DNA of 64,000 nucleotides from assembly GCF_003018255.1 (NCBI RefSeq), contig NZ_CP027440.1, one strand, 5' to 3'. The translations under genes and the position numbers were made by a program. Position 1 is the first letter of the stretch; each line of letters begins with the position of its first letter. A model generated the notes under the pieces. The model had not been told where the DNA came from. It saw only the letters and a program-made list of their open reading frames with translations, and did no database searches. Of this stretch, positions 102-44,827 are shown in pieces. Source of the DNA: Escherichia coli (GTDB lineage: Bacteria > Pseudomonadota > Gammaproteobacteria > Enterobacterales > Enterobacteriaceae).

Positions 102-917
102 ATGACGATCATCCATCCTCTGCTTGCCAGTAGTAGCGCACCGAATTATCGCCAGTCCTGGCGGTTAGCGGGAGTGTGGCGGCGGGCGATTAACCTGATG
201 ACGGAAAGCGGCGAACTGTTAACGCTGCATCGTCAGGGTAGTGGTTTCGGCCCCGGAGGATGGGTGCTTCGCCGCGCGCAATTCGATGCGTTATGCGGTG
301 GATTATGCGGCAATGAACGACCACAGGTTATGGCTCAAGGGATTCGCCTCGGACGTTTCACGGTTAAACAGCCACAGCGTTATTGTTTGCTGCGTATTAC
401 GCCGCCTGCGCATCCTCAACCGCTTGCAGCTGCATGGATGCAACGCGCGGAGGAAACCGGGCTTTTCGGGCCACTGGCGTTGGCGGCAGGCGATCCGCTT
501 CCTGCTGAATTACGCCAGTTTCGTCACTGTTTTCAGGCCGCGCTCAATGGCGTTAAGACCGACTGGCGGCACTGGCTGGGTAAAGGCCCAGGATTAACGC
601 CAAGTCATGATGACACGCTGAGCGGAATGCTGCTGGCGGCCTGGTATTATGGCGCTTTAGATGCGCGCTCCGGTCGCCCGTTTTTTGCCTGTTCCGACAA
701 TCTTCAACTCGTTACCACAGCGGTGAGCGTCAGTTATTTACGTTATGCCGCGCAAGGATACTTCGCCTCGCCACTCCTGCACTTTATTCATGCTCTGAGT
801 TGCCCGAAACGTACCGCTGTTGCGATTGATTCGCTGCTGGCGCTGGGGCATACGTCAGGGGCAGATACGCTGCTGGGGTTCTGGCTTGGCCAACAATTAT
901 TACAAGGAAAATCATGA
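102..917 (+). CDS. ylbF: YlbF (DUF2877-family protein of the allantoin/carbamate cluster)
   Basis: ORF 9..917 with internal ATG at 102 ([11 protein letters not shown]...); stop overlaps start of downstream carbamate kinase gene (ATGA at 914-917); synteny with K-12. Confidence 0.7.
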
Positions 918-1807
918 AAACACTGGTTGTGGCTCTTGGGGGCAACGCCTTACTCCAGCGCGGTGAGGCGCTGACGGCAGAAAATCAATATCGCAACATT
1001 GCCAGTGCTGTACCCGCACTGGCGCGCCTGGCCCGTTCTTATCGGCTGGCGATTGTTCACGGCAACGGGCCGCAGGTGGGGCTGCTGGCGTTACAGAATC
1101 TGGCGTGGAAAGAGGTAGAACCGTATCCGCTGGATGTGCTGGTGGCGGAAAGCCAGGGGATGATTGGCTATATGCTGGCGCAGAGCTTGAGCGCACAGCC
1201 GCAGATGCCGCCTGTCACGACAGTGCTGACGCGCATTGAAGTTTCGCCTGATGATCCGGCGTTTTTGCAGCCAGAGAAGTTTATCGGTCCGGTTTATCAG
1301 CCAGAAGAACAAGAGGCACTGGAAGCGGCTTATGGCTGGCAGATGAAACGTGATGGTAAATATTTACGCCGGGTGGTGGCGTCTCCGCAACCGCGTAAAA
1401 TTCTCGACAGCGAAGCCATCGAGTTGTTGCTCAAAGAGGGGCATGTGGTGATTTGCAGTGGCGGCGGCGGTGTGCCTGTGACGAAAGACGGGGCAGGGAG
1501 TGAAGCGGTAATTGATAAAGATCTCGCCGCTGCGTTGCTCGCCGAGCAGATTAATGCCGATGGACTGGTGATCCTCACCGATGCTGATGCGGTATATGAA
1601 AACTGGGGAACGCCGCAGCAACGTGCCATTCGCCATGCCACACCGGATGAGTTAGCGCCATTTGCCAAAGCCGATGGTTCGATGGGGCCGAAGGTGACTG
1701 CGGTGAGTGGCTATGTCAGAAGCCGTGGCAAACCCGCGTGGATTGGGGCGTTATCGCGGATTGAAGAGACGCTGGCGGGCGAAGCGGGGACTTGTATTTC
1801 GCTGTAG
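914..1807 (+). CDS. ybcF: carbamate kinase-like protein (ArcC family)
   Basis: 297-aa [17 protein letters not shown]..., amino-acid kinase fold motifs, expected length and position after ylbF. Confidence 0.85.
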
Positions 1808-1820
1808 TGATGGGCACCAG

Positions 1821-2324
<504 letters not shown>

Positions 2325-2339
2325 GAAAATGAGCATCAA

Positions 2340-3407
2340 TTAACTGAACTTGCTCTGCGCCCACATCACGCCGCTGGCATACTCTGGCGGCAGCAGCGGG
2401 ATTAAGGCTTCCAGCGTCGCGGTCAGACGCGATGTGTCGCTGTCGGTCAAATTCAGATGCCCCACTTTACGCCCCGGACGGACTTCTTTGTCGTACCAGT
2501 GCAGATGCACCAGCGGCAGTTTCAGCCAGTCATAATTCACATCGCTACCAATCAGGTTGATCATCACCGACGGACTATTCACTACCGGTTGCGGTAACGG
2601 CAGATCGGTAATCGCCCGCAGATGCAGCTCAAACTGGCTGATGCTGGCACCGTTTTGTGTCCAGTGACCGCTGTTATGCACACGCGGAGCCAGTTCGTTG
2701 ATCAGCAGACCTTGCGGGGTGACAAAACACTCCATTGCCATCACGCCTACATAGCCCAGCTCCTGCATAATCGCCGACAGCATCTCTTCGGCTTGCGCTT
2801 GCTGCTGCGCATTGGCCTGCGGGAAAGCGACGCTGGTGCGCAAAATACCGTCCTGATGCAGGTTATGCGTCAGCGGATAAAACACGGTGCTGCCATCAAA
2901 ACCGCGCGCGCCAACCAGCGACACTTCACCAGAGAAGTTAATGCCCTGCTCGACAATACATTCGCCGTAACACTCTGCCGGTAACTGTTCGGTTTCATTT
3001 GCGCGTAAACGCCATTGACCGCGACCGTCATAGCCACCAGTGCGACGCTTAACAATCGCCAGTTCACCTAAACGATCAAACACCGCAGGCCACTCGCTGC
3101 GATCGGCAAGTAACTGCCACGGCGCGGTCGGCAGGTGGAGCTTATCGAAAAGCTGCTTCTGAGTCAGACGGTCGGCAATAATCGGGAACACATCGCGGTT
3201 CACAAAGGCCGGATGGCGCGCCAGCTCGCGGGTTAATGCGGTTTCCGGCCAGCGTTCGATCTCAGCGGTAATCACACTTTGTTGAACAGGCACCGCCGCC
3301 GGTTCAGCGTCCAGCCCGACCGGCCAGACAGCAATGCCTAACGGTTCGCCTGCCTGACGCAGCATACGGCCTAACTGCCCGTTACCGAGGACGCAAACCT
3401 GTTTCAT
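2340..3407 (-). CDS. purK: N5-carboxyaminoimidazole ribonucleotide synthase
   Basis: 355-aa [19 protein letters not shown]... (ATP-grasp), overlaps purE stop; purEK operon arrangement. Confidence 0.95.
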
Positions 3408-3913
3408 GCCGCACCTCGCGGGTCCGGGTTTTCCAGCACTTCGTCGGTCTGGGCTTTGCGCCAGTCATTCAGACGCTGGTGCAGTTCTTTATCATGAGTC
3501 GCAAGAATTTGTGCTGCCAGTAACGCCGCGTTTGCCGCGCCAGCTTTACCAATCGCCAGCGTACCCACCGGAATGCCGCGCGGCATTTGTACGATGGAGT
3601 AGAGGCTATCGACACCGCTCAGTGCGGCGCTCTGTACTGGCACGCCCAGCACTGGCACCAGCGTTTTGGCGGCAATCATGCCTGGCAGGTGCGCTGCGCC
3701 GCCTGCGCCCGCAATAATCACCTGATAACCGTTCTCTTCGGCACTTTCGGCGAAGCTGAACAGTTTATCGGGGGTGCGGTGAGCAGAAACCACTTCAACG
3801 TGGTGTGGGACATTCAGGATTTCGAAGATTTCGGCGGCGAACTGCATGGTAGCCCAGTCGCTTTTGGACCCCATCACGATGGCGACACGCGCCGGATTAT
3901 TGCGGGAAGACAT
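3404..3913 (-). CDS. purE: N5-carboxyaminoimidazole ribonucleotide mutase
   Basis: ORF 3404..3940; start placed at internal ATG ([20 protein letters not shown]...) giving 169 aa. Confidence 0.93.
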
Positions 3914-3974
3914 GCGTCTTAAAACTCCTGTGGTGCACAACTCTCGGCTTTAGAGGGCACAGAGAATAGCACGG

Positions 3975-3991
3975 AAAGAGAGCAAGGAAAA
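3975..3991 (-). promoter_or_regulatory. candidate PurR operator (pur box) upstream of purEK
   Basis: Minus-strand reading cgcgcaaccgttttcct is a near match to pur-box consensus aCGCAAACGTTTTCtT; lies in purE 5' region. Confidence 0.5.
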
Positions 3992-4030
3992 CGGTTGCGC
4001 GGTTATGAAATCAGCAAAGTTGCGCGTTTT

Positions 4031-4753
4031 TTAAAATGGAAAATGGATCAACTCAACGTCATCCGCCGTGACTTTCACCATCGAACCTTCAGTATGCCAG
4101 GCACCCAGCACGACGCGGAAAGCAGGTTGCTGATTGGCGATAAGTTCATGTACTGCCGGGCGATGGGTATGCCCGTGAATCAGCCATTGCACCTGATGTT
4201 TTTCCATCGCACTGACCACCGCGTTTTGGTTAACGTCCATGATCGCCAGCGATTTACTGCTGTTGGCTTCTTTGCTGTTCGCGCGCATTCGCGCGGCAAT
4301 GCGTTTGCGCACAAACAACGGCAGGGCGAGGAATAGCGTTTGCAGCCAGGGTTTGTGGACTTTGGCGCGAAAAGCCTGATAACCGGCGTCATCGGTGCAC
4401 AGCGTGTCGCCATGCATAATCAACACCCGGCGACCATAAAGTTCGAGCACCTTTTCTTCCGGCAATAACGTCATGCCGCTTTCACGGGCAAAGCGTTTGC
4501 CGAGCAGAAAATCACGGTTGCCATGAATGAAATAACAGGGAACGCCGGAATCGGACACCGCTTTGATCGCTGCCGCCATCTGGCGATGGAGTGGGTTGGG
4601 ATCGTCGTCGCCAATCCATGCTTCAAACAGATCGCCAAGAATATACAGCGCGTCGGCCTTGCGGGCTTCCCCCGCTAAAAAACGCAGAAAACCGGCGGTG
4701 ATCGCCGGTTCTTCCGCGCAGAGATGAAGATCTGCAATAAAGAGTGTCGCCAC
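4031..4753 (-). CDS. lpxH: UDP-2,3-diacylglucosamine hydrolase
   Basis: 240-aa [19 protein letters not shown]..., calcineurin-like metallophosphoesterase motifs (DLH, GNRD, GHTH). Confidence 0.95.
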
Positions 4754-4755
4754 GA

Positions 4756-5250
4756 TTACTCGCTAACGGTCACGCTTTCAATGATAACGTCTTCTTTTGG
4801 CACGTCCTGGTGCATACCGCTACGACCGGTTGCAACACCTTTGATTTTGTCTACCACGTCCATGCCTTCAACCACTTCAGCAAACACGCAGTAACCCCAA
4901 CCTTGCAGGCTTTCGCCAGAGAAGTTCAGGAAGTCGTTATCAACCACGTTGATGAAGAACTGTGCAGTTGCAGAGTGCGGTGCCTGAGTACGGGCCATTG
5001 CCAGTGTACCACGGGTATTTTTCAGACCGTTGTTAGCTTCGTTTTTGATCGGGTCTTTGGTGGTTTTTTGCTTCATGCCCGGCTCAAAACCGCCGCCCTG
5101 AATCATAAAGCCGTTGATTACACGGTGGAAAATGGTGTTGTTGTAAAAACCTTCGCGGCAGTAGTCCAGGAAGTTTTTAACTGTTTCAGGTGCTTTATCG
5201 TCAAAAGTTTTGATGACAATATCGCCGTGATTGGTGTGGAAAGTAACCAT
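4756..5250 (-). CDS. ppiB: peptidyl-prolyl cis-trans isomerase B (cyclophilin)
   Basis: 164-aa [30 protein letters not shown]... Confidence 0.95.
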
Positions 5251-5423
5251 TTTTGCATCCTGTTCCGTTTGATTGGTGCTTCAACCCGGTTCGGGTCATA
5301 TATAGGGTGGTGTTATAGCATAACCGCACGATCGGATCATCACGCAATGTATGCTGATTCGCGCGGGAAATATGGGTATTATACGCAACTCAATTACCCA
5401 CACATGTCTAAACGGAATCTTCG

Positions 5424-6809
5424 ATGCTAAAAATCTTCAATACTCTGACACGCCAAAAAGAGGAATTTAAGCCTATTCACGCCGGGGAAGTCGGCATGTA
5501 CGTGTGTGGAATCACCGTTTACGATCTCTGTCATATCGGTCACGGGCGTACCTTTGTTGCTTTTGACGTGGTTGCGCGCTATCTGCGTTTCCTCGGCTAT
5601 AAGCTGAAGTATGTGCGCAACATTACCGATATCGACGACAAAATCATCAAACGCGCCAATGAAAATGGCGAAAGCTTTGTAGCGCTGGTGGATCGCATGA
5701 TCGCCGAAATGCACAAAGATTTTGATGCTTTGAATATTCTGCGCCCGGATATGGAGCCGCGCGCGACGCACCATATCGCAGAAATTATTGAACTCACTGA
5801 ACAACTGATCGCCAAAGGTCACGCGTATGTGGCGGACAACGGCGACGTGATGTTCGACGTACCGACCGATCCGACTTATGGCGTGCTGTCGCGTCAGGAT
5901 CTCGACCAGTTGCAGGCAGGCGCGCGCGTTGACGTAGTCGATGACAAACGCAACCCAATGGATTTCGTTCTGTGGAAGATGTCGAAAGAGGGCGAACCGA
6001 GCTGGCCGTCGCCGTGGGGCGCGGGCCGTCCAGGCTGGCACATTGAATGTTCGGCAATGAACTGCAAGCAGCTGGGTAACCACTTTGATATCCACGGCGG
6101 CGGTTCAGACCTGATGTTCCCGCACCACGAGAACGAAATCGCGCAGTCCACCTGTGCCCATGATGGTCAGTATGTGAACTACTGGATGCACTCGGGGATG
6201 GTGATGGTTGACCGCGAGAAGATGTCCAAATCGCTGGGTAACTTCTTTACCGTGCGCGATGTGCTGAAATACTACGACGCGGAAACCGTGCGTTACTTCC
6301 TGATGTCAGGCCACTATCGCAGCCAGCTGAACTACAGCGAAGAGAACCTGAAGCAGGCACGCGCGGCGCTGGAGCGTCTCTACACTGCGCTGCGTGGCAC
6401 AGATAAAACCGTTGCGCCTGCCGGTGGCGAAGCGTTTGAAGCGCGCTTTATTGAAGCGATGGACGACGATTTCAACACCCCGGAAGCCTATTCCGTGCTG
6501 TTTGATATGGCGCGTGAAGTGAACCGTCTGAAAGCAGAAGATATGGCAGCGGCGAATGCAATGGCATCTCACCTGCGTAAACTTTCCGCTGTATTGGGCC
6601 TGCTGGAGCAAGAACCGGAAGCGTTCCTGCAAAGCGGTGCGCAGGCAGACGACAGCGAAGTGGCTGAGATTGAAGCGTTAATTCAACAGCGTCTGGATGC
6701 CCGTAAAGCGAAAGACTGGGCGGCGGCAGATGCGGCGCGTGACCGTCTTAACGAGATGGGGATCGTGCTGGAAGATGGCCCGCAAGGGACCACCTGGCGT
6801 CGTAAGTAA
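5424..6809 (+). CDS. cysS: cysteinyl-tRNA synthetase
   Basis: 461-aa ORF with class I HIGH (CHIGHGRT) and KMSKS motifs. Confidence 0.97.
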
Positions 6810-6814
6810 TTGCG

Positions 6815-6845
6815 CTATTGCCGGATGCGAGTTTTCGCATCCGGT
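6815..6845. repeat. REP-like palindrome between convergent cysS and ybcI (probable bidirectional terminator hairpin)
   Basis: gccggatgcgagttttcgcatccgg inverted repeat directly after cysS stop. Confidence 0.5.
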
Positions 6846-7366
6846 TATCGTCTGCGCCACCACAACATTCCCATCAGTAGCATCCCCGGCAACCACACCC
6901 ACATCAATTCAGAAATAATCACCTGATGCCCGTACGGCGTGGTGTAACGAGACAATGCAAACGGCGCGACTTTAATCACCTGCCAGGGAGCGAAAAAGCG
7001 TTCATCTGACCACGGCCACAGCCAGCCAACGCCTTTACCGCCAGTGGTTACCGAATCCAGCAAGCTGTGCGATAGCAACGAGACGGTTAAAAACAGCCAG
7101 CAGCGAATCAGCCCAGCCCTGAACCATCGACGTCCAATCAGCACACATAACAGCGGGACAACAAACGCAAACACCAGCGAATGGGTAAACCCGCGATGAC
7201 CAAAAACATTGCCGTAAGCAAAGCCAAATTTAAACGACAATACGTCGGCATCAGGCAGCATCGCCAGGACGATTCCGGCAAATAACAGGCGCGGAGGGAT
7301 GACTTTCGAACCCAACCCTAAACCAATGCAAAGGGGAACGGCGGCGTGCGTAATAACGGTTGGCAT
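6845..7366 (-). CDS. ybcI: inner-membrane metal-dependent hydrolase family protein
   Basis: 173-aa hydrophobic ORF in conserved position. Confidence 0.8.
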   Translation of the reverse strand: MPTVITHAAVPLCIGLGLGSKVIPPRLLFAGIVLAMLPDADVLSFKFGFAYGNVFGHRGFTHSLVFAFVVPLLCVLIGRRWFRAGLIRCWLFLTVSLLSHSLLDSVTTGGKGVGWLWPWSDERFFAPWQVIKVAPFALSRYTTPYGHQVIISELMWVWLPGMLLMGMLWWRRR

Positions 7367-7473
7367 GATGGTCGCTTCGGCAAAATGTCGATGCTATCAG
7401 CATGGATGAACGGGGCGTAGAGGGCAACAGTCTGAAAAGAGAACCGGCCTGTTGTTACAGGCCGGGAAAGGGA

Positions 7474-7686
7474 TCAGGCAACAACCTGTACGCTGTGACC
7501 TGCAAAACTCACTGTCTGCCCGGCGACGATTTTGCAGCGTTTGCGCGTTTCAACCGCACCGTCGACTTTCACCTGGCCTTCGGCAATCGCGATTTTCGCC
7601 TGCGCGCCGCTTTCGCTCCAGCCTTCCAGTTTCAGCAAGTCGCACAGCTCAACGTGCGGATGTTTACCTAAAGAAAATGTCGCCAT
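7474..7686 (-). CDS. ybcJ: S4-like RNA-binding protein
   Basis: ORF 7474..7740; start placed at internal ATG 7684-7686 (MATFSLGKHPHVELCDLLK...) giving 70 aa, abutting folD stop. Confidence 0.8.
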   Translation of the reverse strand: MATFSLGKHPHVELCDLLKLEGWSESGAQAKIAIAEGQVKVDGAVETRKRCKIVAGQTVSFAGHSVQVVA

Positions 7687-7687
7687 G

Positions 7688-8554
7688 TTACTCACCCTGT
7701 GGATCATGATATTCAACGCACGCCTGTAGCGTGTTTTCAATCAGCGTGGCAACCGTCATCGGGCCAACGCCGCCCGGAACAGGCGTAATGTATGAGGCGC
7801 GTTTAGCCGCGTCTTCAAACACGACGTCGCCCACAACTTTGCCATTTTCCAGACGGTTGATGCCGACATCAATCACAATTGCGCCTTCTTTGATCCAGTC
7901 ACCAGGAATAAAGCCCGGCTTGCCGACGGCAACGATCAGTAGATCGGCATTTTCTACGTGGTGACGCAGATTTTTAGTGAAACGGTGAGTCACGGTGGTG
8001 GTGCAACCTGCCAGTAGCAGTTCCATGCTCATCGGGCGGCCAACGATATTCGATGCGCCAATCACCACGGCGTTGAGGCCGAAGGTATCAATGTTGTAAC
8101 GCTCAAGCAGCGTGACAATACCGCGCGGGGTGCAGGGACGCAGACGCGGCGCGCGCTGGCACAGGCGACCGACGTTATAAGGATGGAAACCGTCCACGTC
8201 TTTGTCCGGGTGTATACGTTCCAGCACTTTGACGTTATCAATACCCGCCGGTAACGGCAGTTGAACCAGAATGCCATCGATGGTGTTGTCGGCATTCAGC
8301 GCATCGATAAGCTCCAGCAGCTCCGCTTCGCTGGTGGTTTCCGGGAGGTCATAAGAGCGGGAGACGAACCCGACTTCTTCACAAGCCTTGCGTTTGCTTG
8401 CGACATAAATTTGCGATGCAGGGTTACTACCCACCAGCACAACGGCCAGTCCTGGTGCCCGCAGTCCGGCTGCAATACGCGCCTGAACTTTTTGAGCAAC
8501 TTCAGAGCGCACCTGCTGCGCAATCGTTTTACCGTCAATAATCTTTGCTGCCAT
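7688..8554 (-). CDS. folD: bifunctional 5,10-methylene-tetrahydrofolate dehydrogenase/cyclohydrolase
   Basis: 288-aa [26 protein letters not shown]... Confidence 0.97.
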
Positions 8555-8765
8555 CAGAGAGAGGATTCCATCTGTTACGTAGGTCGAAGGGGATGCGTCT
8601 ATTTTGTCAGAAGCGTGGCGCGCTGTCAGTTTTCGTTTTCTGAAAAGTAAAACCTTCTGTACCTGGCTGATTCACACCTATCATGATAACCGTCGTTGGT
8701 TTGCCGCCATAGTGAGCTACATCTGATGCGGTCGTACACTTGTTCAGCAACTGGTTCAAAAGCCA

Positions 8766-8793
8766 TTGACTCAGCAAGGGTTGACCGTATAAT
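8766..8793 (+). promoter_or_regulatory. candidate sigma70 promoter for argU
   Basis: TTGACT (8766-8771), 16-bp spacer, TATAAT (8788-8793), about 30 bp upstream of the tRNA 5' end. Confidence 0.5.
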
Positions 8794-8824
8794 TCACGCG
8801 ATTACAGCACACCGTGGTATCAAT

Positions 8825-8901
8825 GCGCCCTTAGCTCAGTTGGATAGAGCAACGACCTTCTAAGTCGTGGGCCGCAGGTTCGAATCCTGCAGGGCGCGCC
8901 A
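8825..8901 (+). tRNA. argU: tRNA-Arg (anticodon UCU)
   Basis: 77-nt sequence gcgcccttagctcagttggatagagcaacgaccttctaagtcgtgggccgcaggttcgaatcctgcagggcgcgcca with CCA end; anticodon loop cuUCUaa. Confidence 0.95.
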
Positions 8902-8908
8902 TTAAAAT

Positions 8909-9536
8909 TCAATCAGTTACGCCTTCTTTATTTCTTCTATAATTCCAGAGTGGGACATTATCACCAAAAATGTCGTCTATTTTCCTCGCGTGCTCAGTCA
9001 AATGATTAGGCGCAAGGTGAGCATATCTACGAACCATTTCTCTGGACTCCCATCCGCCCATTTCCTGAAGCACTGATAATGGGACGCCTGACGGAATCAA
9101 CCAGCTTGCCCAGGTATGCCAGAGGTCATGGAAACGGAAATTTTCAATTCCTGCACGACGACAAGCTGATAGCCATGCTGTCTTGCTGTCAATGCGCATC
9201 TTCCTGAGCGCAGGCATTGATGTTCCATCTGCTCGCTTAGCCGCCCTGGTATGTACACCCACATTTGTGATGCTTGCCTGTTTGATCACGCAACACTTTA
9301 GAGGCGGTATCGTTCAGCGCCACACCAATGGCGCAGTTTGATTTGCTATCTTCTGGATTCACCCTGGCAACTTGTCGCTGCATGTCAATCTGTTGCCACT
9401 CCAGATTTATGATGTTCGACTTTCTCAGAACAGTTACCAGCGCAAATTTGACGACAGATTTCAGTGGTTCGGGGCTCTCATCAATCAGGCGTTTGGCCTG
9501 ATTCTTTTGTAAGTCTCTTGTGCCATTCCACCTCAT
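8909..9536 (-). pseudogene. tyrosine recombinase/integrase pseudogene (frameshifted, N-terminally truncated)
   Basis: Two overlapping minus-strand ORFs in different frames (8909..9289 with catalytic-region HDLWHTWAS and RRYAHL; 9237..9536) totalling about 210 aa; no N-terminal domain upstream. Confidence 0.8.
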
Positions 9537-9948
9537 ACAGGTTTGCCTGCAAACAGTACTGATATTGCCCAGATATTCCGGCTGGCTTCGTGGTTGTTTT
9601 CAACAGTGATGAGGCATCGTGGCATCTCGTTGAAGACCATCGGGGTAAAACGGTTTATGACGTGGCATCAGGGGACGCATTATTTATTTCTGAACTCGGT
9701 CCGTTACCGGAAAATGTCACCAGGTATCCCCGGCAGGGGAGTTTCAGAAGTGGAACGGCATATCATGGATAAAGGATACGGAGGAAGAAACCTCGTTGCT
9801 GGAAGCCTGGAAGATGTATCGGGTGTTGCTGAACCGAGTTGATACATCAACTGCCCCTGATATTTAGTGGCCTGTGAACCCTGTCAGAGAGTAATCATTG
9901 GGATTATGCCGCAGAACGTCGTGCGCAAGAACGTGCTGCGGCTGGATG

Positions 9949-10617
9949 CTATTTTTTCCCTGAAGCGGAAAACATTACTACAGTACCTTTAACCTTGGTT
10001 TTAACATTCTCGAAATGCTCTGAGAGTATATGTGTTAAGCCTTCTTCGGAATCTTTTGTGTTTGAAAAGATGCCTTTCTGATTGTAAATGCGCATCAGTT
10101 TTTGACCGAAGCTATTGTGCACAACGCCGTCACCAAGAATTGTGGCTCCGTATAGAGTTCCATCGTCAGTTAAGGCCTGCGCCGCATTGCGTATTACACA
10201 GCTTTTTGTAGATATATTTCCAGGCAGGCAGTGAAGAAGGTAAAACATGGAAATGGAATCAAATTGACCATGTAACGCCGCGGGATAAGGATCAAAAACA
10301 TCATGGCTAATTTTATGTTTAATTTTTGATTCCCCAGCCCTTGTCGATGCCGCGTTCAGGCTAGCTTCGTTCAAATCCATTAAAGATATCAGACTACTCT
10401 CAGGTACGTGAGTAAGGTAAAACCCAGTTCCAACGCCAATATCCAGATGGTTGTTACCTAAATGTTCCAGAAAGTGTGGAAGAAGGTGTTCCTTTGTAGG
10501 ACATCCCCATGCAAGCCGATTTGATACACCCAAAACCCACCAGTCATAAAGCTTTAGGGTAAGTGGTGTGTAAATTTTAGCCCCATCATCTGTGTTTTTT
10601 TTCATTAGTTTCACCAT
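9949..10617 (-). CDS. class I SAM-dependent methyltransferase (prophage-associated, YbcY-like)
   Basis: 222-aa ORF with SAM-binding motif I LDIGVGTGFYL. Confidence 0.7.
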   Translation of the reverse strand: MVKLMKKNTDDGAKIYTPLTLKLYDWWVLGVSNRLAWGCPTKEHLLPHFLEHLGNNHLDIGVGTGFYLTHVPESSLISLMDLNEASLNAASTRAGESKIKHKISHDVFDPYPAALHGQFDSISMFYLLHCLPGNISTKSCVIRNAAQALTDDGTLYGATILGDGVVHNSFGQKLMRIYNQKGIFSNTKDSEEGLTHILSEHFENVKTKVKGTVVMFSASGKK

Positions 10618-10848
10618 GTTATAGTTTTATTTGTGAATTAAATCAATTATAGCGATGAATTACAAGGGGTTAAATGATGCCACGGCATAACGAATTTGAA
10701 TATATTGAGTCTTGTGTTGCGGTAAGAGGTTACACGCCAGGACGCAGGTTAAATGCTTACAAGATTAGGGGATATTGTTTGCTTTTAACGGTAAACAAAT
10801 TCCCCGGGGCTATACAATACCACCGGGGAGAAAATCTATTTAACGTTG

Positions 10849-11802
10849 TTAAAAGGTGTACTTAAGACCAGCAGTAGTGATGAAGTTATAGTTTTCTATG
10901 CCTGCACCATTTTTGCTGTAGTCAGAAGTGTTATCATTGTGATCATAAAGTGAAGTATCACCTTTTTTATTCGTAACCCGATTCCATGCGCCTTCAATAT
11001 AAACTTTTGCATTAGGCGTTACGTAATAACCTGCATTGACTGCAACAGAATAGTAATTTTGGTCTTTGACTTTACTGCGATAAGTGATTCTTTTTCCTGG
11101 GTCATAGTGTTCATCGTTATCAGATGCTTCCACCCAGCCGCTGTATTTAAATGTGCCACCTAGCTCAAAATCTTCATAACGATAACTTCCAGTCAAGCCA
11201 ATGTAGGGCATTTTAAAACGTTGTTTGTAGCCGATTGCTCTTTCTCCATTCGGGAAGGAGCCGATATCATCTCTGAATCCCTCCTCAGAACTGTAGATAT
11301 AGGAACCACCTCTGGCTGTAAAGCTATAACGGCTTTCCTGATATCCGGCCATGAGTCCCAGGCGGTAATTGGGTTCGTTGAGGAACCAGCCTTTGATATT
11401 CAGATCAAATTCGTTGGCATAATTGAGTTGTGTATCAGGGTGTCTACTTTCATCCGTCCAGGTTCCGGGGTTACTGGAATCCATCCAGTCCTGATCGACC
11501 ATATTGCCACCTCGGCTGCCGAGTGTTGTCCAGCCAGCAGCCCCGATAGATATCTGGGGCATCAAATCCCAATTAATTGCACCTTTAATAATTGCAGCGT
11601 TATTGAATTTCCAGTCAAGTTGACTGACTTTTCGGCCTCCTTCTTCGGCTAGATAAACACGCTCTTTTGTTTTTCCGCTCAGAGTTCCAAGACTAATGTC
11701 CGCATTTATGTTGTCAGGAGTAAACGATAAAGTCTCGGTAGAAGCAAAAGAGCTGATCGCAATAGGGGTTGTCAGGACTATTCCCAGAAGTTTCGCCCGC
11801 AT
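10849..11802 (-). CDS. ompT: outer-membrane protease VII (omptin)
   Basis: 317-aa ORF MRAKLLGIVLTTPIAISSFAST..., beta-barrel ending ...TAGLKYTF. Confidence 0.95.
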   Translation of the reverse strand: MRAKLLGIVLTTPIAISSFASTETLSFTPDNINADISLGTLSGKTKERVYLAEEGGRKVSQLDWKFNNAAIIKGAINWDLMPQISIGAAGWTTLGSRGGNMVDQDWMDSSNPGTWTDESRHPDTQLNYANEFDLNIKGWFLNEPNYRLGLMAGYQESRYSFTARGGSYIYSSEEGFRDDIGSFPNGERAIGYKQRFKMPYIGLTGSYRYEDFELGGTFKYSGWVEASDNDEHYDPGKRITYRSKVKDQNYYSVAVNAGYYVTPNAKVYIEGAWNRVTNKKGDTSLYDHNDNTSDYSKNGAGIENYNFITTAGLKYTF

Positions 11803-12225
11803 AAAAGGTCTCCATTCAATCGTTTTAATGATTGAGTATGTATTTTTTATATCTAACTTAATGAGTCAATTGTATATTGCCCCACTGTTTATATTTTGTT
11901 TAACATTGAATTTTTGTCACAATGCACTGTCAGTTTTTTAGTTTAATTGTCTGTTTGTGTTTTGCATTGTGGTTTTATGGGCTAATTATTTTTTTCTTTG
12001 TGGAGTTTTTATCTATTCAAGTACCATGCCTTTAGATGCATATTAGCGATAATAGCATGAGGTTTATCCTCAATTGCTGTGTTTTTTAGTATAAAAAAGA
12101 GGAACAAAACTGAGACACATAAGGCCTCGCAATGGCTTGCAAGGTTTTACATATTTTGAGGTGGTGGAACGTGTGAACGCAGAGATGGCGCGGTAATTTG
12201 TTGATTTAAAATGTCGTTCCTGGAG

Positions 12226-12270
12226 TTTCTAAGTCGTGGGCTACAGGTTCGAATCCTGCAGGGCGAGCCA
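12226..12270 (+). repeat. argU 3'-end direct repeat (prophage attR core)
   Basis: tctaagtcgtgggctacaggttcgaatcctgcagggcgagcca matches the last ~45 nt of argU with about 3 mismatches. Confidence 0.75.
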
Positions 12271-12460
12271 TTTCCTCGCCATTTATTTGTTCCCTTTTAC
12301 AAATTACACCATCACTTTGTTGTCGCGGTTTTGCTAAATAATTGGAACACGTCAGACGAATAAAATGAAAACAGAAATTCTGCTAAACAATTCATCTTGC
12401 CAGGATTTTGATTAGGAAAGTGAAAAGGAAAGGAGCAAGCTAAGTTGCTCCCTTTAATCA

Positions 12461-13351
12461 TTAATACTCAAGGATACTCTGCGCGACGGGCAAATAGCGC
12501 AGAGAGAAATAGAGCGTGTCTTTACCGCAAGAGGAACGTTTCGCTAACAGCGAGGCGATCTCTGCATCCGGTTTCGGTTTCGCTGTAAACGTTTTACCTT
12601 TACCAGCGACAAACAGTTCATAAACAATGCCGCTTGCTGGGGCGGAACTTTGGCAATCGGCGCTGGCCTGTAGATAACGTTCACGCTGTTCAGCGGTCAG
12701 TTTATCCACGCCGCTGCCATCCTGTACCCAGACATTAACACCGGTTGCTTTAACTTGTTCCAGCAGTTGGCGATAGCCATCTGGCGACATGTTTCCGGCG
12801 AAAAAACTACTGATATAAACCGGTTTTGCTGAAACATCGCTAATCAACCGCTGCGCGTTGTTTAACCATGTTAGCAAAGGTTGACGGGCGGCTTCGCTGC
12901 GCCAGTTCAGGTCGTCAATTTCCGCGCTGATGTACCAGCCATCCGGCGTTACGCCAGGCACGGCGCTCCATAATCTGGCTTGCTGGAGATCGGCAGCCAG
13001 CAGGCGATTAAGATAGCTTTCCAGCGCTGCGGAGGACTGTTTCTGGTGTATAAAAAATTCCGGATCGGCGTTCAGCCCGACAATCAGCTTCAGGCCAGCC
13101 TGTTGCGCAGCTGCGGCACGCTTAAACAATAACGCGCGCTGTTCTGGCTGGGTGAATGCATCGCCGTAACGGGTCCATTGCAAAACCAGGGTATCGAAGC
13201 CTTGCAAACGTAACTGACTCATCAGCCCCTGCCACTGGGTATCGGTAACCTGACTATCACGGTTTTGTGGTTGCCAGATAATACCTTTCATCGCAAAGGA
13301 AAAAGGGCTGACCAAAAGCAGTGTCAACAATACGAAAATGAACTTACGCAT
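12461..13351 (-). CDS. ybcH: YbcH family secreted protein of unknown function
   Basis: 296-aa ORF with N-terminal signal peptide, directly downstream of nfrA as in K-12. Confidence 0.8.
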   Translation of the reverse strand: MRKFIFVLLTLLLVSPFSFAMKGIIWQPQNRDSQVTDTQWQGLMSQLRLQGFDTLVLQWTRYGDAFTQPEQRALLFKRAAAAQQAGLKLIVGLNADPEFFIHQKQSSAALESYLNRLLAADLQQARLWSAVPGVTPDGWYISAEIDDLNWRSEAARQPLLTWLNNAQRLISDVSAKPVYISSFFAGNMSPDGYRQLLEQVKATGVNVWVQDGSGVDKLTAEQRERYLQASADCQSSAPASGIVYELFVAGKGKTFTAKPKPDAEIASLLAKRSSCGKDTLYFSLRYLPVAQSILEY

Positions 13352-18699: not shown

Positions 18700-19900
18700 A
18701 GACAAAAGCGTGGTGTCAAGGAGGGGAGGTTAACGCAGGGAAAGATTACGAAAGCCCGCTCCCAGCAAGGACTGACGCGAGATAGTTTCTGTCCATGGCT
18801 GCTTTTCGCAACTTACGTCTTAACCCTGCCTTGAATACCTTATCATTCGTCAAAATATTAATAGCGATGTGCCGTAGCCCTGAAAATAATTCTGCTGCAT
18901 TTCCTCTTCTTATTTTGCAGTCGTCTTCATTCATTACCACGTCCAGACGCCAGTGCAGCTTATTCTCCACGTGCCAGTGGTTTCGGATTGCTGTGGCGAA
19001 CTTCTCTGCGGTTAAATCAGCAGAACTGATATAATATCTGACCGTCATTTCTGGCTCTTTCTTTTGTTCTGCTATTATTGACCGAAAGGAGACTGCCACG
19101 CATAATTTCTTCAGTCCTTTCCATTCAAACGTGAAATCAATAAGTTCATCAGGGACATCGCAAACAATGTGAAGCCGGATTTCTTCTCTGCCGTGACTCT
19201 TTTCACTAATTGCGTAACTGTCATGCTCTGGATTATTTAATTCTTTCAGTGGGAATTTTTCCTCAAAGGCTTTATTAAGCCGCCCCTGATTTCCTTTTAC
19301 AGCGAATAAATAATCACCGCCCTGTTTTTGTATCTTCTCTGCAATATCTTTCTGGCAACCCATCGCATCAGTTGTGATGATTTTTCCTTTAATATCCAGC
19401 ATGTTAAGAAGTTCTGGGATAGCTGTAATCTCATTAGATTTCTCATCCGTCCTGATCTGTCCGATGACCAGACTGTGCATTGTTGAGAACGCACTAATGA
19501 CATGAATCGCTCCCCTGCGGCGACTCCTGTCATAAGAATGCCGGAGTGTTTTTCCATCGATTGCAATAACGTCTTTATCATCTGAAGTATGGCAATCTCG
19601 CATCCAGTTAATAAAGCACTCGTGAAATTTTGAAGGACTGATACAGGATACAACTCTGGCGATGGTATCGTGAACAGGAATACCATTTTCAAAATCACCA
19701 TATTGTTTTAAAAAATCGAGATGTGTTTCCCCAAAATCCTCTATATCTTCCCAGCCTTCTGCACCAGAAATAACGGCACAAATAGTCAACAGTAGAATAT
19801 CCGACAATTTATGTTCCACTTTCCAGGCTTGTCTGTAATCGGGGATAATAGAAATATGTTCCATCAATTTTTTAAGTTCCATTTTGTTCTCCTTAATTAT
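18700..19900. mobile_element. ISAs1-family (H-repeat) insertion element at the distal end of the Rhs island; boundaries approximate
   Basis: Contains an H-repeat-type transposase ORF; this family is classically found at the end of E. coli Rhs elements. Confidence 0.6.
18746..19882 (-). CDS. ISAs1-family transposase (H-repeat-associated protein)
   Basis: 378-aa [54 protein letters not shown]... typical of H-rpt/YhhI-type transposases. Confidence 0.85.
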
Positions 19901-20146: not shown

Positions 20147-20230
20147 TGCAGGAACTGAGGAAGGAACTTTATCAGGTTAAACAGGTGGTGAAGGGAATGA
20201 AGAACGGGATATCCGGCGTATTACGCGAGG

Positions 20231-20266
20231 TATAAAAATAAAAGCCGGGAGATTGTCACTCCCGGC
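20231..20266 (-). terminator. candidate intrinsic terminator after the orphan immunity gene
   Basis: Hairpin gccgggag...ctcccggc followed on the minus strand by a T-rich run (ttttatttttat). Confidence 0.5.
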
Positions 20267-20272
20267 AACATA

Positions 20273-20554
20273 TTATTTTTTTATTTCATTATATCTGATA
20301 AAAAAAGTATTTAGCGCATCATGTTCATCTTGTGAGAACAATAAAATAATTTTATCCCATGAATGTCCTGTTACTCCATAATAGTCTTCAATATAAGATT
20401 GAAGCCTTATTAATATCTCAATATTGACGATTTCTTTTGGCTCTCTCATTTGCCATCCATCCAGGAAAGCTTTTAACGCCGATATGGTATGCCTGCTTAA
20501 ATATAAAGCTGGTCTTTTTTCTATCATATCAATCAGTTTAACAATATCATTCAT
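20273..20554 (-). CDS. putative immunity protein for the orphan Rhs toxin tip (RhsI-like)
   Basis: 93-aa AT-rich ORF starting 2 nt after the toxin-tip stop; position is the only evidence. Confidence 0.5.
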   Translation of the reverse strand: MNDIVKLIDMIEKRPALYLSRHTISALKAFLDGWQMREPKEIVNIEILIRLQSYIEDYYGVTGHSWDKIILLFSQDEHDALNTFFIRYNEIKK

Positions 20555-20556
20555 AA

Positions 20557-21180
20557 TTAAAACCTTGATGGAGTAATGGTGTATTCGCCAGGAGAGTATA
20601 TATCATTCAGCCAATCTTCATACTTTATACCAGAAGGATTCATATTATCAAAAACTGTATCACCTACTTTTATTGCTTCATGATGACCATTAGTTGCTAT
20701 ATTTTTACCTATTCTATCACTCCATATATTGCCAAAGGCACCTTGTTTATTTTTAGTTTCGAGTATGAGATGCTCACCATTTACCCCAGCTTGTTGCATT
20801 TTACTTTTTAACGCTGCGGCAAATTTATCGCATTGAAAAAGCTGTTTAAACTTATCACTTATTGTTGTTGCAAGATCCCTTGTTTTTGCGATATCGCAAA
20901 TGGTTAATCCTAATGGATCAATATAACCAAGGGGATTATGAACATATGCATAATTGTTTATCCCGCCTCTCAGCCCTATCGGGTCACTCACCAGGTACAT
21001 CCCTGTTTCCGGCTCGTAATACCGGAACCGGTTATAGCACAGCCCGGATTCCGTATCCTGCCACTGTCCTGCATACAGCAGGCCGGGGTCGGGGTCGGCT
21101 TCCGGGTCCAGCTCCCCGCGCGGGTCCGGGTAGCCGGTGTCTGCGGGCAGACTGAGTGCCAGCCCCCACAGGCTGGTTTG
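20557..21180 (-). CDS. orphan Rhs C-terminal toxin cassette (conserved PxxxxDPxGL junction plus about 115-aa variable toxin domain of unknown activity)
   Basis: In frame with orphan core fragment after an in-frame TGA; contains YYEPETGMYLVSDPIGLRGG...NPLGYIDPLGL then an AT-rich divergent tail. Confidence 0.65.
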   Translation of the reverse strand, partial: QTSLWGLALSLPADTGYPDPRGELDPEADPDPGLLYAGQWQDTESGLCYNRFRYYEPETGMYLVSDPIGLRGGINNYAYVHNPLGYIDPLGLTICDIAKTRDLATTISDKFKQLFQCDKFAAALKSKMQQAGVNGEHLILETKNKQGAFGNIWSDRIGKNIATNGHHEAIKVGDTVFDNMNPSGIKYEDWLNDIYSPGEYTITPSRF

Positions 21181-39393: not shown

Positions 39394-40770
39394 GTGAAAA
39401 ACGCGTCAACCGTATCGGAAGATACTGCGTCGAATCAAGAGCCGACGCTTCATCGCGGATTACATAACCGTCATATTCAACTGATTGCGCTGGGTGGCGC
39501 AATTGGTACTGGTCTGTTTCTTGGCATTGGTCCGGCGATTCAGATGGCGGGTCCGGCTGTATTGCTGGGCTACGGCGTCGCCGGGATCATCGCTTTCCTG
39601 ATTATGCGCCAGCTTGGCGAAATGGTGGTTGAGGAGCCGGTATCCGGTTCATTTGCCCACTTTGCCTATAAATACTGGGGACCGTTTGCGGGCTTCCTCT
39701 CTGGCTGGAACTACTGGGTAATGTTCGTGCTGGTGGGAATGGCAGAGCTGACCGCTGCGGGCATCTATATGCAGTACTGGTTCCCGGATGTTCCAACGTG
39801 GATTTGGGCTGCCGCCTTCTTTATTATCATCAACGCCGTTAACCTGGTGAACGTGCGCTTATATGGCGAAACCGAATTCTGGTTTGCGCTGATTAAAGTG
39901 CTGGCGATCATCGGTATGATCGGCTTTGGCCTGTGGCTGCTGTTTTCTGGTCACGGCGGCGAGAAAGCCAGTATCGATAACCTCTGGCGTTACGGTGGTT
40001 TTTTTGCCACCGGCTGGAATGGGCTGATTTTGTCGCTGGCGGTAATTATGTTCTCTTTCGGCGGTCTGGAGCTGATTGGGATTACTGCCGCTGAAGCGCG
40101 CGATCCGGAAAAAAGCATTCCGAAAGCAGTGAATCAGGTGGTGTATCGCATTCTGCTGTTTTATATCGGTTCACTGGTGGTTTTACTGGCACTCTATCCG
40201 TGGGTGGAAGTGAAATCCAACAGTAGCCCGTTTGTGATGATTTTCCATAATCTCGACAGCAACGTGGTAGCTTCTGCGCTGAACTTCGTCATTCTGGTGG
40301 CATCGCTGTCGGTGTATAACAGCGGGGTTTACTCTAACAGCCGCATGCTGTTTGGCCTTTCTGTGCAGGGTAATGCACCGAAGTTTTTGACTCGCGTCAG
40401 CCGTCGCGGCGTGCCGATTAACTCGCTGATGCTTTCCGGAGCCGTCACTTCGCTGGTGGTGCTGATTAACTATCTGCTGCCGCAAAAAGCGTTTGGTCTG
40501 CTGATGGCGCTGGTGGTAGCAACGCTGCTGTTGAACTGGATTATGATCTGCCTGGCGCATCTGCGTTTTCGCGCGGCGATGCGACGTCAGGGACGTGAAA
40601 CACAGTTTAAGGCGCTGCTCTATCCGTTCGGCAACTATCTTTGCATCGCCTTCCTCGGCATGATTTTGCTGCTGATGTGCACGATGGATGATATGCGCTT
40701 GTCAGCGATTCTGCTGCCAGTGTGGATTGTATTCCTGTTTGTAGCGTTTAAAACGCTGCGTCGGAAATAA
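39394..40770 (+). CDS. pheP: phenylalanine-specific permease (APC family)
   Basis: ORF 39358..40770; start placed at GTG 39394 (VKNASTVSEDTASNQEPTLHRGLHNRHIQLIALGGAIGTGLF...). Confidence 0.9.
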   Translation: MKNASTVSEDTASNQEPTLHRGLHNRHIQLIALGGAIGTGLFLGIGPAIQMAGPAVLLGYGVAGIIAFLIMRQLGEMVVEEPVSGSFAHFAYKYWGPFAGFLSGWNYWVMFVLVGMAELTAAGIYMQYWFPDVPTWIWAAAFFIIINAVNLVNVRLYGETEFWFALIKVLAIIGMIGFGLWLLFSGHGGEKASIDNLWRYGGFFATGWNGLILSLAVIMFSFGGLELIGITAAEARDPEKSIPKAVNQVVYRILLFYIGSLVVLLALYPWVEVKSNSSPFVMIFHNLDSNVVASALNFVILVASLSVYNSGVYSNSRMLFGLSVQGNAPKFLTRVSRRGVPINSLMLSGAVTSLVVLINYLLPQKAFGLLMALVVATLLLNWIMICLAHLRFRAAMRRQGRETQFKALLYPFGNYLCIAFLGMILLLMCTMDDMRLSAILLPVWIVFLFVAFKTLRRK

Positions 40771-40812
40771 GGCATTCGCGCCGTATCCGACAAAATGATG
40801 TCAACCATCCGA

Positions 40813-40848
40813 AACCGCTCTCATCCATTCGATGAGAGCGGTTTTTTT
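40813..40848 (+). terminator. intrinsic terminator between convergent pheP and ybdG
   Basis: Hairpin aaccgctctcatc/gatgagagcggtt followed by T run. Confidence 0.75.
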
Positions 40849-40850
40849 AA

Positions 40851-42146
<1,296 letters not shown>

Positions 42147-42205
42147 TTATGCAAATCAGGAGAATCTGAGGGGAAATAGCCGGGCAGATGCCCGGCAAGG
42201 GAGAA

Positions 42206-42859: not shown

Positions 42860-42952
42860 AAAGACTCCATGTGAAAGTAATTTTGCGTGCCAGCAGATTA
42901 CAAGGTTCAACGAGAAATGGTAAGCGAGAAAAATGCGCTATAGATTTCCGCT

Positions 42953-43321: not shown

Positions 43322-43385
43322 AAACGTTCCTTTAGGCGAAGGAGAATAAGCAAAGTATGCCGCGAAGTACGGCGATAATCGACGT

Positions 43386-43699: not shown

Positions 43700-44827
<1,128 letters not shown>

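Follow-up and report, generated by a model that had tools for sequence, protein, structure and literature searches.

The region from 8825 to 12270 of the window (the whole stretch analysed, 64,000 nt of Escherichia coli DNA from assembly GCF_003018255.1, contig NZ_CP027440.1) is very probably a remnant, fixed and immobile, of a lambdoid prophage of the DLP12 type at the 3' end of argU, which has been whittled down by stepwise deletions and still carries two cargo genes under purifying selection. Judged from its sequence, it is an argU-integrated element of about 3.4 kb from attL to attR, with ompT and a SAM-dependent methyltransferase gene as its sole intact genes. DLP12 is a textbook cryptic prophage, and a remnant of this kind at argU is already known and ordinary rather than new. 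Read from left to right, the order is argU, int', tfa', ybcY, ompT and a copy of the argU 3' end (attR), with the following features:

8825-8901 (+): argU, tRNA-Arg(UCU), the integration target (ARAGORN; Rfam tRNA, 72 bits; identical to K-12 argU in alignment)
8858-8903 (+): attL core, 46 bp, argU from its anticodon loop to the 3' end, plus 2 nt (exact pattern match; alignment with attR and both K-12 copies)
8909-9508 (-): int' pseudogene, C-terminal half only (IntD aa ~183-387), N-terminal 182 aa deleted, frameshift near 9262 (Pfam, tblastn, PGAP note)
9509-9524: probable breakpoint of the large internal deletion, at which int codon ~182 meets tfa codon ~31 (PhiR29_1 comparison; 1120 genomes)
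~9525-9891 (+): tfa', tail-fibre-assembly pseudogene (tblastn to K-12 TfaD; blastn to PhiR29_1 tfa; multi-genome alignment)
9949-10617 (-): ybcY, intact class I SAM-dependent methyltransferase of 222 aa, a phage moron gene (Pfam, PHROG, phage copies)
10646-10673 (-): putative promoter-like site, TTAACC-16-TATAAT (10/12), ~29 nt ahead of the ybcY start (consensus scan only)
10693-10700: probable junction left by the loss of ~2 kb with the remainder of tfaX and an alpha/beta-hydrolase gene (PhiR29_1 blastn segments, 41193 vs 43169)
10849-11802 (-): ompT, intact omptin outer-membrane protease, 317-aa precursor (Pfam Omptin, NCBIfam)
11803-11917 (-): proximal ompT upstream region, ~115 bp, conserved across all ompT contexts (alignment of six upstream regions)
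11918-12097 (-): distal ompT upstream segment, attR-proximal type (blastn gaps; alignment; contiguous 92% match to K-12)
12098-12226: prophage right arm adjoining attR (88.9% match to PhiR29_1 46049-46237)
12227-12272 (+): attR, a 46-bp repeat of the argU 3' end, decaying and with 3 substitutions (pattern match, alignments)
12273-12460: chromosomal spacer between attR and ybcH, outside the element, envY missing (K-12 comparison; junction in 1122 genomes)

The original prediction was of a ~3.4 kb argU prophage remnant, and alignment to K-12, the att match, Pfam and tblastn all bear it out, every element on its parts list being found at or close to the expected position. Its claim that only ompT and the methyltransferase were retained holds as far as intact genes are concerned, but it had overlooked the tfa' pseudogene between the integrase and the methyltransferase. 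The two att repeats are identical at 43 of 46 positions, and this exact alignment upholds the view that the right-hand repeat is an imperfect copy of the argU 3' end, although its length is 46 bp and not 45. When the att pattern was searched for with up to three mismatches, just these two matches were found in the window and none in 100 shuffles. The 46-bp core is shared with K-12 DLP12, whose attR copy is perfect in contrast to the three substitutions here; in ST131 attR has an additional 11-bp deletion. Beyond the tRNA, Rfam at a permissive E-value gave nothing but its antisense artefact, a partial IS009 match below threshold and one chance hit.

The integrase pseudogene reads toward argU and ends 8 nt away from the tRNA. 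Its two ORFs, 8909-9289 and 9237-9536 (both on the minus strand), match Pfam Phage_integrase (E 6e-17 and 5e-15) and correspond by tblastn to residues 270-373 and 183-268 of K-12 IntD in frames -2 and -3, with 84-91% identity over residues 183-373, in agreement with the earlier description of integrase fragments in two frames. Since the gene is both truncated and frameshifted it is presumably non-functional, and the PGAP note on it in near-identical genomes reads "frameshifted; incomplete; missing N-terminus". Rather than a full-length integrase, the same truncation is found in 1120 complete genomes, and the reading as a remnant stands. At the junction with tfa there are about 16 nt of filler of no assignable source, and microhomology is not evident. 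The tail-fibre pseudogene itself matches K-12 TfaD residues 43-107 and 93-187 in two frames (tblastn); its N-terminus is missing, ~104 bp have been lost internally between imperfect repeats near 9778-9790, and the multi-genome alignment shows lineage-specific deletions of 4 bp and 1 bp. TTGAA-type microhomology is present at the ~2-kb deletion junction; in K-12, appY occupies the place of the hydrolase gene lost there. An ORF of 63 aa between ybcY and ompT (10674-10865) had neither a Pfam nor a PHROG match and was dismissed.

Of the two intact genes, ybcY scores above the Pfam gathering cut-offs for both Methyltransf_12 (37.5 bits, cut-off 30) and Methyltransf_23 (28.7 bits, cut-off 27), confirming the predicted SAM methyltransferase, and the glycine-rich SAM-binding motif I can be read from its translation as LDIGVGTG. 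It belongs to phrog_2132 (E 6e-156), a family annotated as "unknown function"; as to substrate or subfamily, NCBIfam was without a match and PDB sequence matches were weak (E ~1e-3, to juvenile-hormone acid methyltransferase and UbiG). The protein annotated at this position in DETEC-S792, ST131 5506 and Ecol_743 is WP_000239877.1. The ompT call was equally sound: the product matches PF01278 over positions 1-283 of 283 (E 3e-130, 434 bits) and NCBIfam NF008222 with 707 bits (cut-off 537), is 98.4% identical to K-12 OmpT (5 substitutions), and has all residues of the catalytic pairs Asp83/Asp85 and Asp210/His212 (mature numbering), so that it is predicted to be an omptin with an intact catalytic site. 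At the cell surface, the established role of OmpT is to cut cationic antimicrobial peptides. A putative promoter-like site lies in the proximal upstream region (11869-11842, consensus scan). The distal segment, which is common to K-12 and O111:H8 but diverged, stands where PhiR29_1 and O157 have 1.65 kb encoding an XRE-cupin regulator and an acetyltransferase.

No counterpart of the lambdoid gene complement (Q antiterminator, lysis cassette, terminase etc.) was found in the region by comparison with K-12 DLP12 and PhiR29_1, and therefore it is best regarded as a remnant and not a prophage. DLP12 of K-12 (NC_000913.3 564755-586056) occupies the same argU site with a homologous integrase beside the tRNA, and its right end shares the order tfa-ybcY-...-ompT-attR as well as the 180-bp distal segment upstream of ompT. 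It measures 21.3 kb, however, against 3.4 kb here, and the stretch from xisD to nohD (K-12 565420-581658, 16.2 kb) and tfaX-appY (582902-584633) have no counterpart in the window, as expected from the predicted absence of the 21-kb DLP12 gene set. The integrase is truncated and frameshifted in the window, whereas ybcY is intact in the window and a pseudogene in K-12. K-12 DLP12 is also flanked by envY and sfm-fimZ, both of which are absent beside the remnant.

The full-length relatives PhiR29_1, PhiR26_1, ev243, 2G7b, Turner and Kati are complete lambdoid genomes of 45-49 kb with the same integrase family, argU att and cassette order. Their ybcY and OmpT are each 98-99% identical to those of the remnant, the ybcY copies being in active phages. 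In contrast to the remnant, they carry replication, lysis, head and tail genes, and their ompT is flanked by genes for an alpha/beta hydrolase, an XRE-cupin regulator and an acetyltransferase, all missing in the window. PhiR29_1 (46 kb) is bounded on either side by argU att sequences and has the order int ... Q, porin, lysis, bor, terminase, head, tail, stf, tfa, ybcY, tfaX', hydrolase, ompT ... att, of which positions 646-39895 have no blastn counterpart in the window. Comparison with both K-12 and PhiR29_1 (blastn) shows that the right-end cassette, tfa-ybcY-(tfaX/appY or hydrolase)-ompT-attR, has retained its order and orientation with the middle gene deleted. Altogether ompT was found at an identity of at least 98% in 13 Escherichia phage records (two phages appearing under two accessions each), and full-length ybcY in the same 13 records and in phage 204576. 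Literature searches on the ompT-carrying phages PhiR29, PhiR26, ev243 and 2G7b gave nothing relevant, and those on DLP12, ompT and argU only incidental mentions.

Other remnants at argU have fared differently. That of O111:H8 strain 8E is likewise short and has kept ybcY and ompT beside a truncated integrase; it differs in that the integrase fragment directly abuts ybcY, and in that tfaX', the alpha/beta hydrolase gene, envY and sfm-fimZ are retained. In two divergent genomes, Escherichia sp. E1V33 and strain SCPM-O-B-8794, the argU remnants have lost ompT and attR, and one of them keeps emrE while the other has a GGDEF gene.

These comparisons suggest the following history. A DLP12-type lambdoid prophage would have integrated at the 3' end of argU, and at least four deletions would be needed to go from a PhiR29_1-like genome of 46 kb to 3.4 kb: one of ~39 kb from integrase codon ~182 to tfa codon ~31, one of ~0.1 kb within tfa, one of ~2 kb taking tfaX' and the hydrolase gene, and a change, common to K-12, in which 1.65 kb upstream of ompT would have been swapped for 180 bp. 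The outcome would be two pseudogenes, int' and tfa', beside ybcY and ompT, two intact moron genes transcribed leftward, each with its own promoter-like site and an orientation opposite to that of the neighbouring tail-fibre genes. The remnant is probably incapable of excision, because half of the integrase is gone and the rest is frameshifted, xis is missing and attR is gathering substitutions and deletions. This arrangement would have formed once and then been inherited through the whole lineage; envY and sfm-fimZ, at opposite sides, would have been lost in separate events in the chromosomal flanks.

One may also consider an alternative explanation, in which related argU phages integrated separately, or in which a newer phage recombined into an older remnant to give K-12 DLP12 as a composite; we consider this possible, with perhaps one chance in three or a little less. 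It would account for the fact that K-12 intD and PhiR29_1 int are 99% identical to each other while int' shares only 90-91% identity with either, and that the sequence downstream of ompT is of the hydrolase-type cassette (PhiR29_1 43169 onward) and not of the K-12 appY type; moreover, active argU phages with ybcY/ompT cargo are still circulating. Nevertheless, upstream of ompT, K-12, O111:H8 and the window have in common a derived segment of 180 bp and the arm next to attR, neither of which occurs in PhiR29_1 or O157, and the synonymous divergence of ompT between the window and K-12 (dS 0.066) matches that of the flanking folD (0.072). At the nucleotide level int' and K-12 intD differ by ~9-10%, a value that falls within the synonymous range of the flanking folD and ybcH (dS 0.15 for the latter) and thus fits neutral decay since the lineages split.

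Whether the two cargo genes persist for their usefulness, or merely because deletions have yet to reach them, is a different matter. Both ompT and ybcY are under purifying selection while int', tfa' and attR decay: dN/dS is 0.06-0.08 for ybcY and 0.07-0.2 for ompT, on small counts (2-5 nonsynonymous and 6-14 synonymous changes), far below 1 and in contrast to 0.35-1.4 for the relaxed ybcY pseudogene of K-12. All sampled genomes of the lineage also have both genes annotated as intact, whereas int', tfa' and attR have meanwhile gained frameshifts and deletions, and the independent O111:H8 remnant retains the same pair. A neutral leftover is what one might read into the absence of ompT from the argU remnants of two divergent Escherichia genomes and from 43% of complete E. 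coli genomes, as well as into the low ompT expression reported for this context (PMC6854850); we regard it as quite improbable. Selection on ompT is not universal, however, because the E1V33 and SCPM-O-B-8794 remnants are without it, and these two tempered what is otherwise well supported by low dN/dS and the O111:H8 remnant, namely the earlier notion that the protease was kept while the phage was deleted.

As for ybcY, we tentatively raise the possibility, on balance a doubtful one, that it is not a passenger but a domesticated phage methyltransferase beneficial to the host and co-selected with ompT as a two-gene moron cassette. Compatible with this, the B2-type and O111:H8 8E remnants, formed independently, keep exactly ybcY and ompT intact, and a single YbcY accession is found in divergent B2 genomes, with dN/dS of ~0.07 while the K-12 copy decayed.

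The right-hand flank called for a correction. No EnvY or AppY homologue was found by tblastn, and the prediction that no envY-like gene lies between ompT and ybcH is therefore accurate; the implication that its loss belongs to the prophage decay is not. K-12 has envY at 586147-586908, outside attR and past the end of the DLP12 feature (586056), while prophage-free E. albertii has the order argU-orf160-envY-ybcH, with envY ~0.7 kb from argU, one 160-aa ORF between them and neither integrase nor ompT. The missing envY is therefore best explained by a separate deletion or replacement in the flank (12344-12460). Loss in the same deletion as the prophage, which might be suspected since envY adjoins ompT in K-12 and is missing here, was rejected on the position of attR and is exceedingly improbable, given that the window still has attR and ~60 bp of its right flank to separate ompT from the envY-less spacer. 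When the stretch from attR to ybcH was aligned globally with K-12, the gapped result was meaningless, and short-word blastn was used instead, by which homology was not found beyond ~12335; the final ~117 bp, without a K-12 counterpart, include a ybcH terminator-like hairpin (12454-12429, minus strand). The sfm-fimZ genes of the K-12 flank are also absent here.

Among 5426 complete E. coli genomes, the int/tfa junction occurs in 1120, the envY-less junction between attR and ybcH in 1122, and the entire 3.8-kb structure in 1119, about a fifth. With identical junctions in ~1120 independently finished genomes, an assembly or sequencing artefact collapsing a full prophage was ruled out and has practically no probability left. 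A strain-specific remnant was likewise ruled out by these counts (1119-1122) and by the published arrangement. The carriers include Nissle 1917, NU14, 83972 and ST131, from which names we take the lineage to be of the B2 phylogroup. Four sampled genomes are ~99% identical and share the int frameshift; Nissle, ST131 5506 and Ecol_743 have identical junctions, with further lineage-specific indels confined to tfa', int' and attR. More than a thousand finished genomes carry the same annotation of the locus from the NCBI pipeline. To judge from these sequences, the same degraded structure appears to be inherited across the lineage.

In K-12, ompT is flanked by two AraC-type regulator genes, appY inside the prophage and envY outside it. 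The neighbourhood in the window corresponds to what Desloges et al. 2019 (PMC6854850), in its available text, describes as the "CFT073/EPEC-like" context: ompT lies 657 bp from ybcH and adjoins ybcY in cystitis isolate 11, CFT073, UTI89, 536, J96, 83972 and E2348/69. The layout is identical (ybcH, ~657 bp, ompT, ybcY; no envY or appY), the spacing in the window being 658 bp. That text, which cites Thomassin 2012 and Brannon 2013 for the genomic context of ompT, links this context to low ompT expression and low omptin activity. It covers the neighbourhood and the link to expression, whereas the attL/attR bounds, the int' and tfa' pseudogenes and the deletion map come from the present analysis. 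The loss of the regulator genes appY and envY, together with the diverged distal promoter, may set the low ompT expression of the lineage.

As a discovery the remnant is of small value; it is a clean worked example of prophage domestication at one tRNA site, argU, where full-length phages, the 21-kb K-12 intermediate, two short, independent remnants with ompT and ybcY and two with other cargo can be lined up. The correction concerning envY is useful for interpreting ompT regulation, as it makes envY a gene of the chromosomal backbone that was lost separately.

The stretch from argU to the second att site holds the following features:

8825-8901, plus strand: argU, tRNA-Arg(TCT), the sole tRNA found in the window by ARAGORN, with Rfam in agreement, and identical to K-12 argU in alignment
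8909-9289 and 9237-9536, minus strand: integrase open reading frames, both matching Pfam Phage_integrase (profile positions 103-171 and 3-86)
about 9525-9891, plus strand: fragment of a tail-fibre-assembly pseudogene (tfa'), matching TfaD residues 43-107 and 93-187 in two frames (tblastn)
9949-10617, minus strand: ybcY, intact, a class I SAM methyltransferase of 222 aa (Pfam Methyltransf_12 and Methyltransf_23, above gathering values)
10849-11802, minus strand: ompT, intact, 317 aa (Pfam Omptin, E 3e-130; NCBIfam NF008222, 707 bits, cut-off 537)
12227-12272: att repeat copying 8858-8903, equal at 43 of 46 positions, from the argU anticodon loop to 2 nt beyond the CCA end

The integrase fragments in two frames, the methyltransferase and ompT that the original prediction placed behind argU were all found by Pfam and tblastn. 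The two integrase frames correspond to K-12 IntD residues 270-373 and 183-268 (tblastn); all that remains of the 387-aa integrase is its C-terminal half, with a frameshift near 9262. The att copy of the tRNA 3' end is also real, although it measures 46 bp rather than 45, and the two copies are the only matches in 64 kb at up to three mismatches (none in 100 shuffles). OmpT is 98.4% identical to that of K-12 and has D83, D85, D210 and H212 all in place. That ompT and the methyltransferase are retained was correct, but the tfa' fragment had been overlooked; in DETEC-S792, whose genome is near-identical, the NCBI pipeline labels it a pseudogene. A sub-threshold partial match to Rfam IS009 (9770-9851, plus strand, 67.5 bits, where the gathering score is 117) lies inside tfa' at its internal-deletion site and is probably just conserved tfa sequence.

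In the K-12 record the cryptic prophage DLP12 occupies 564755-586056, from within argU to attR. Its right end reads intD ... nohD, tfaD, ybcY (a pseudogene there), tfaX, appY, ompT, and envY (586147-586908), ybcH and nfrA follow beyond attR. The blocks colinear with the window by blastn are argU with the 3' 605 nt of intD (90.4% identity), the tfaD interior (89.5%), the tfaD 3' end with ybcY and the start of tfaX (95.9%), ompT to attR (92.2%), and ybcH with nfrA (96.8%). As had been predicted, the K-12 DLP12 gene set is missing: the alignment lacks 565420-581658 (16.2 kb), about 105 bp within tfaD, and 582902-584633 (tfaX-appY), where 98 bp stand instead, and AppY had no tblastn match in the window.

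Full-length relatives of the element exist among phages. In the GenBank phage collection, ompT was found by OmpT tblastn at 98% identity or more in 13 Escherichia phage records (ev243 and 2G7b each counted under two accessions), and full-length ybcY (YbcY tblastn, 98-99% identity) in the same 13 and in phage 204576. The ybcY-bearing records, which include PhiR29_1, PhiR26_1, ev243, 2G7b, Turner and Kati, are 45-49 kb long, save 204576 (31.5 kb). PhiR29_1 (46,273 bp; its record is oriented as a prophage and has argU-derived sequence at each end) carries a complete lambdoid set and, after it, stf, tfa, ybcY, a tfa fragment, an alpha/beta hydrolase gene, ompT, an XRE-cupin regulator and an acetyltransferase. 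Only its positions 1-645, 39896-40166, 40271-41193, 43169-44394 and 46049-46237 are kept in the window, and four deletions therefore explain how 46 kb became 3.4 kb. The first removed 39.2 kb, and its junction has about 16 nt of filler that could not be assigned; the second took 104 bp of tfa between imperfect AGGAAGAAA-type repeats; the third, of 2 kb, has TTGAA microhomology at its junction; and the fourth, of 1.65 kb, lies upstream of ompT with 180 bp in its place. This 180-bp segment is shared by the window, K-12 and O111:H8 but not by PhiR29_1 or O157. The sequence directly downstream of the window's ompT matches the hydrolase-type cassette, not the appY type of K-12. The larger ompT cassette (ybcY, tfa', alpha/beta hydrolase, ompT, XRE-cupin regulator, acetyltransferase) spans PhiR29_1 40442-45824 and 823-8311 of the O157:H7 locus, and in O157:H7 the ybcY-hydrolase-ompT cassette lies near minCDE, not at argU.

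The absence of envY, which the original prediction listed with the missing prophage genes, calls for a different reading. There is indeed no EnvY in the window by tblastn, but envY is a backbone gene beyond attR and its absence is a loss separate from prophage decay. Escherichia albertii has the order fimZ-argU-(160-aa ORF)-envY-ybcH-nfrA, without integrase, ompT or a second att copy, and therefore envY belongs to the chromosomal backbone beside argU, DLP12 having inserted between the two. K-12 586186-587090 (envY) is replaced in the window by 117 bp at 12344-12460, to the right of attR; this stretch is unrelated to K-12, contains no envY-derived sequence detectable by short-word blastn, and has a terminator-like hairpin directly after ybcH (12454-12429, minus strand). 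The envY-less attR-ybcH junction occurs in 1122 of 5426 complete E. coli genomes.

The other flank also differs from K-12. Between folD (7688-8554) and argU, sfmACDHF-fimZ (K-12 557826-564583, 6.8 kb) is absent, and about 55 bp (8639-8693), possibly with a 23-nt trace of the fimZ start, are found instead; the same folD-argU junction occurs in two divergent Escherichia genomes, SCPM-O-B-8794 and Escherichia sp. E1V33, while E. albertii and O111:H8 retain fimZ beside argU. Further away are a tandem array in the ybcF-purK intergenic region (1820-2324; a 100-bp unit with REP-like palindromes, repeated 5.1 times at 94% matches) and, just past nfrB, an ISAs1-family transposase ORF (18746-19882, minus strand, 378 aa), followed up to about 24000 by a symE fragment, a papain-fold toxin and RHS genes, judging by 98.9% colinearity with annotated DETEC-S792.

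Remnants of other kinds occupy the same site. O111:H8 strain 8E (locus positions 4105-8846) reads argU-int'-ybcY-tfa'-alpha/beta hydrolase-ompT, where int' is the integrase pseudogene, and keeps envY beyond; its junctions are unlike those of the window, yet ybcY and ompT are intact in both, so that two independent remnants keep these genes. In an outgroup scan of one genome per species, screened for ybcH, E1V33 showed folD-argU-int'(aa 332-387)-emrE-...-tfa'-ybcH, a DLP12-type remnant with emrE and without ompT or attR, and SCPM-O-B-8794 showed folD-argU-int'(aa 341-387), a gene for a 444-aa GGDEF protein, and ybcH. The integrase fragment of E1V33 (about 56 codons, locus 6389-7000) is fused next to the intact multidrug-efflux gene emrE, with the tfa fragment further on; in SCPM-O-B-8794 the ORF between ybcH and the 46-codon integrase fragment (locus 11234-12568) encodes a membrane, diguanylate cyclase-like protein. 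Decay at argU has thus happened several times, with various outcomes.

Within E. coli, the whole 3.8-kb stretch is present (at least 80% coverage in one place) in 1119 of 5426 complete genomes and the int/tfa junction in 1120; counted as genes in their own right, ompT occurs in 3078 of the genomes and ybcY in 3798, and a genome may have as many as four copies. Carriers of the stretch include Nissle 1917, NU14, 83972, O18:H1 and O25b:H4-ST131, which are phylogroup B2 strains. When the window, Nissle, ST131 strain 5506, Ecol_743 and DETEC-S792 were aligned, every junction and the integrase frameshift were held in common at about 99% identity, and length differences fell only in intergenic DNA and the non-functional parts. 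In the lineage of the window tfa' has lost 4 bp and 1 bp, in Ecol_743 int' has lost 1 bp, DETEC-S792 has a single-base insertion upstream of ompT, and ST131 5506 lacks 11 bp at the end of attR (aligned to window 12267-12277), which shows that att-site decay is still going on within the lineage. The same YbcY accession, WP_000239877.1, is annotated at the equivalent position in DETEC-S792, ST131 5506 and Ecol_743.

The element is fixed in the population, with intact coding sequences and catalytic residues and low dN/dS (Nei-Gojobori). For ybcY, the window against intact copies gave 0.06-0.08 (2 nonsynonymous, 7-9 synonymous differences), and for ompT 0.07-0.2. The K-12 ybcY pseudogene, which has lost its start region (20153-20821 of the K-12 locus), gave 0.35-1.4 against intact copies (8-10 nonsynonymous, 2-8 synonymous), indicating relaxed constraint, unlike the window copy. 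Omptins act on the cell surface, where they cut cationic antimicrobial peptides at dibasic sites. The ompT dS between the window and K-12 (0.066) is close to that of flanking folD (0.072) and below that of ybcH (0.146). Neutral evolution over that distance would account for the 9-10% by which int' differs from K-12 intD, a point in favour of a single old integration with lineage-specific decay afterwards. A less likely alternative, compatible with the 99% identity between K-12 intD and the PhiR29_1 integrase, is that there were several integrations or that incoming relatives recombined with the element. With half of the integrase lost and the remainder frameshifted, xis absent and attR decaying, the element would be unable to excise. 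Each of ybcY and ompT may be expressed from its own promoter; a sequence scan found promoter consensus-like sites at 10673-10646 and 11869-11842, which are not evidence of function.

The original observation is real and its main interpretation holds, and the arrangement is already in the literature, since the layout in the available portion of Desloges et al. 2019 (PMC6854850) matches the window: ompT lies 657 bp from ybcH (658 bp in the window), adjoining ybcY, without envY or appY. That portion reports this context in cystitis isolate 11, CFT073, UTI89, 536, J96, 83972 and EPEC E2348/69 and, citing Thomassin 2012 and Brannon 2013, links it, together with an "EPEC-like" distal promoter, to low ompT expression and activity; a deletion map bounded by attL and attR is not part of the description there. 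The low expression may result from the absence of envY and appY combined with the divergence of the distal promoter. The arrangement itself is nothing unusual: in a major E. coli lineage it is the standard state and already known.
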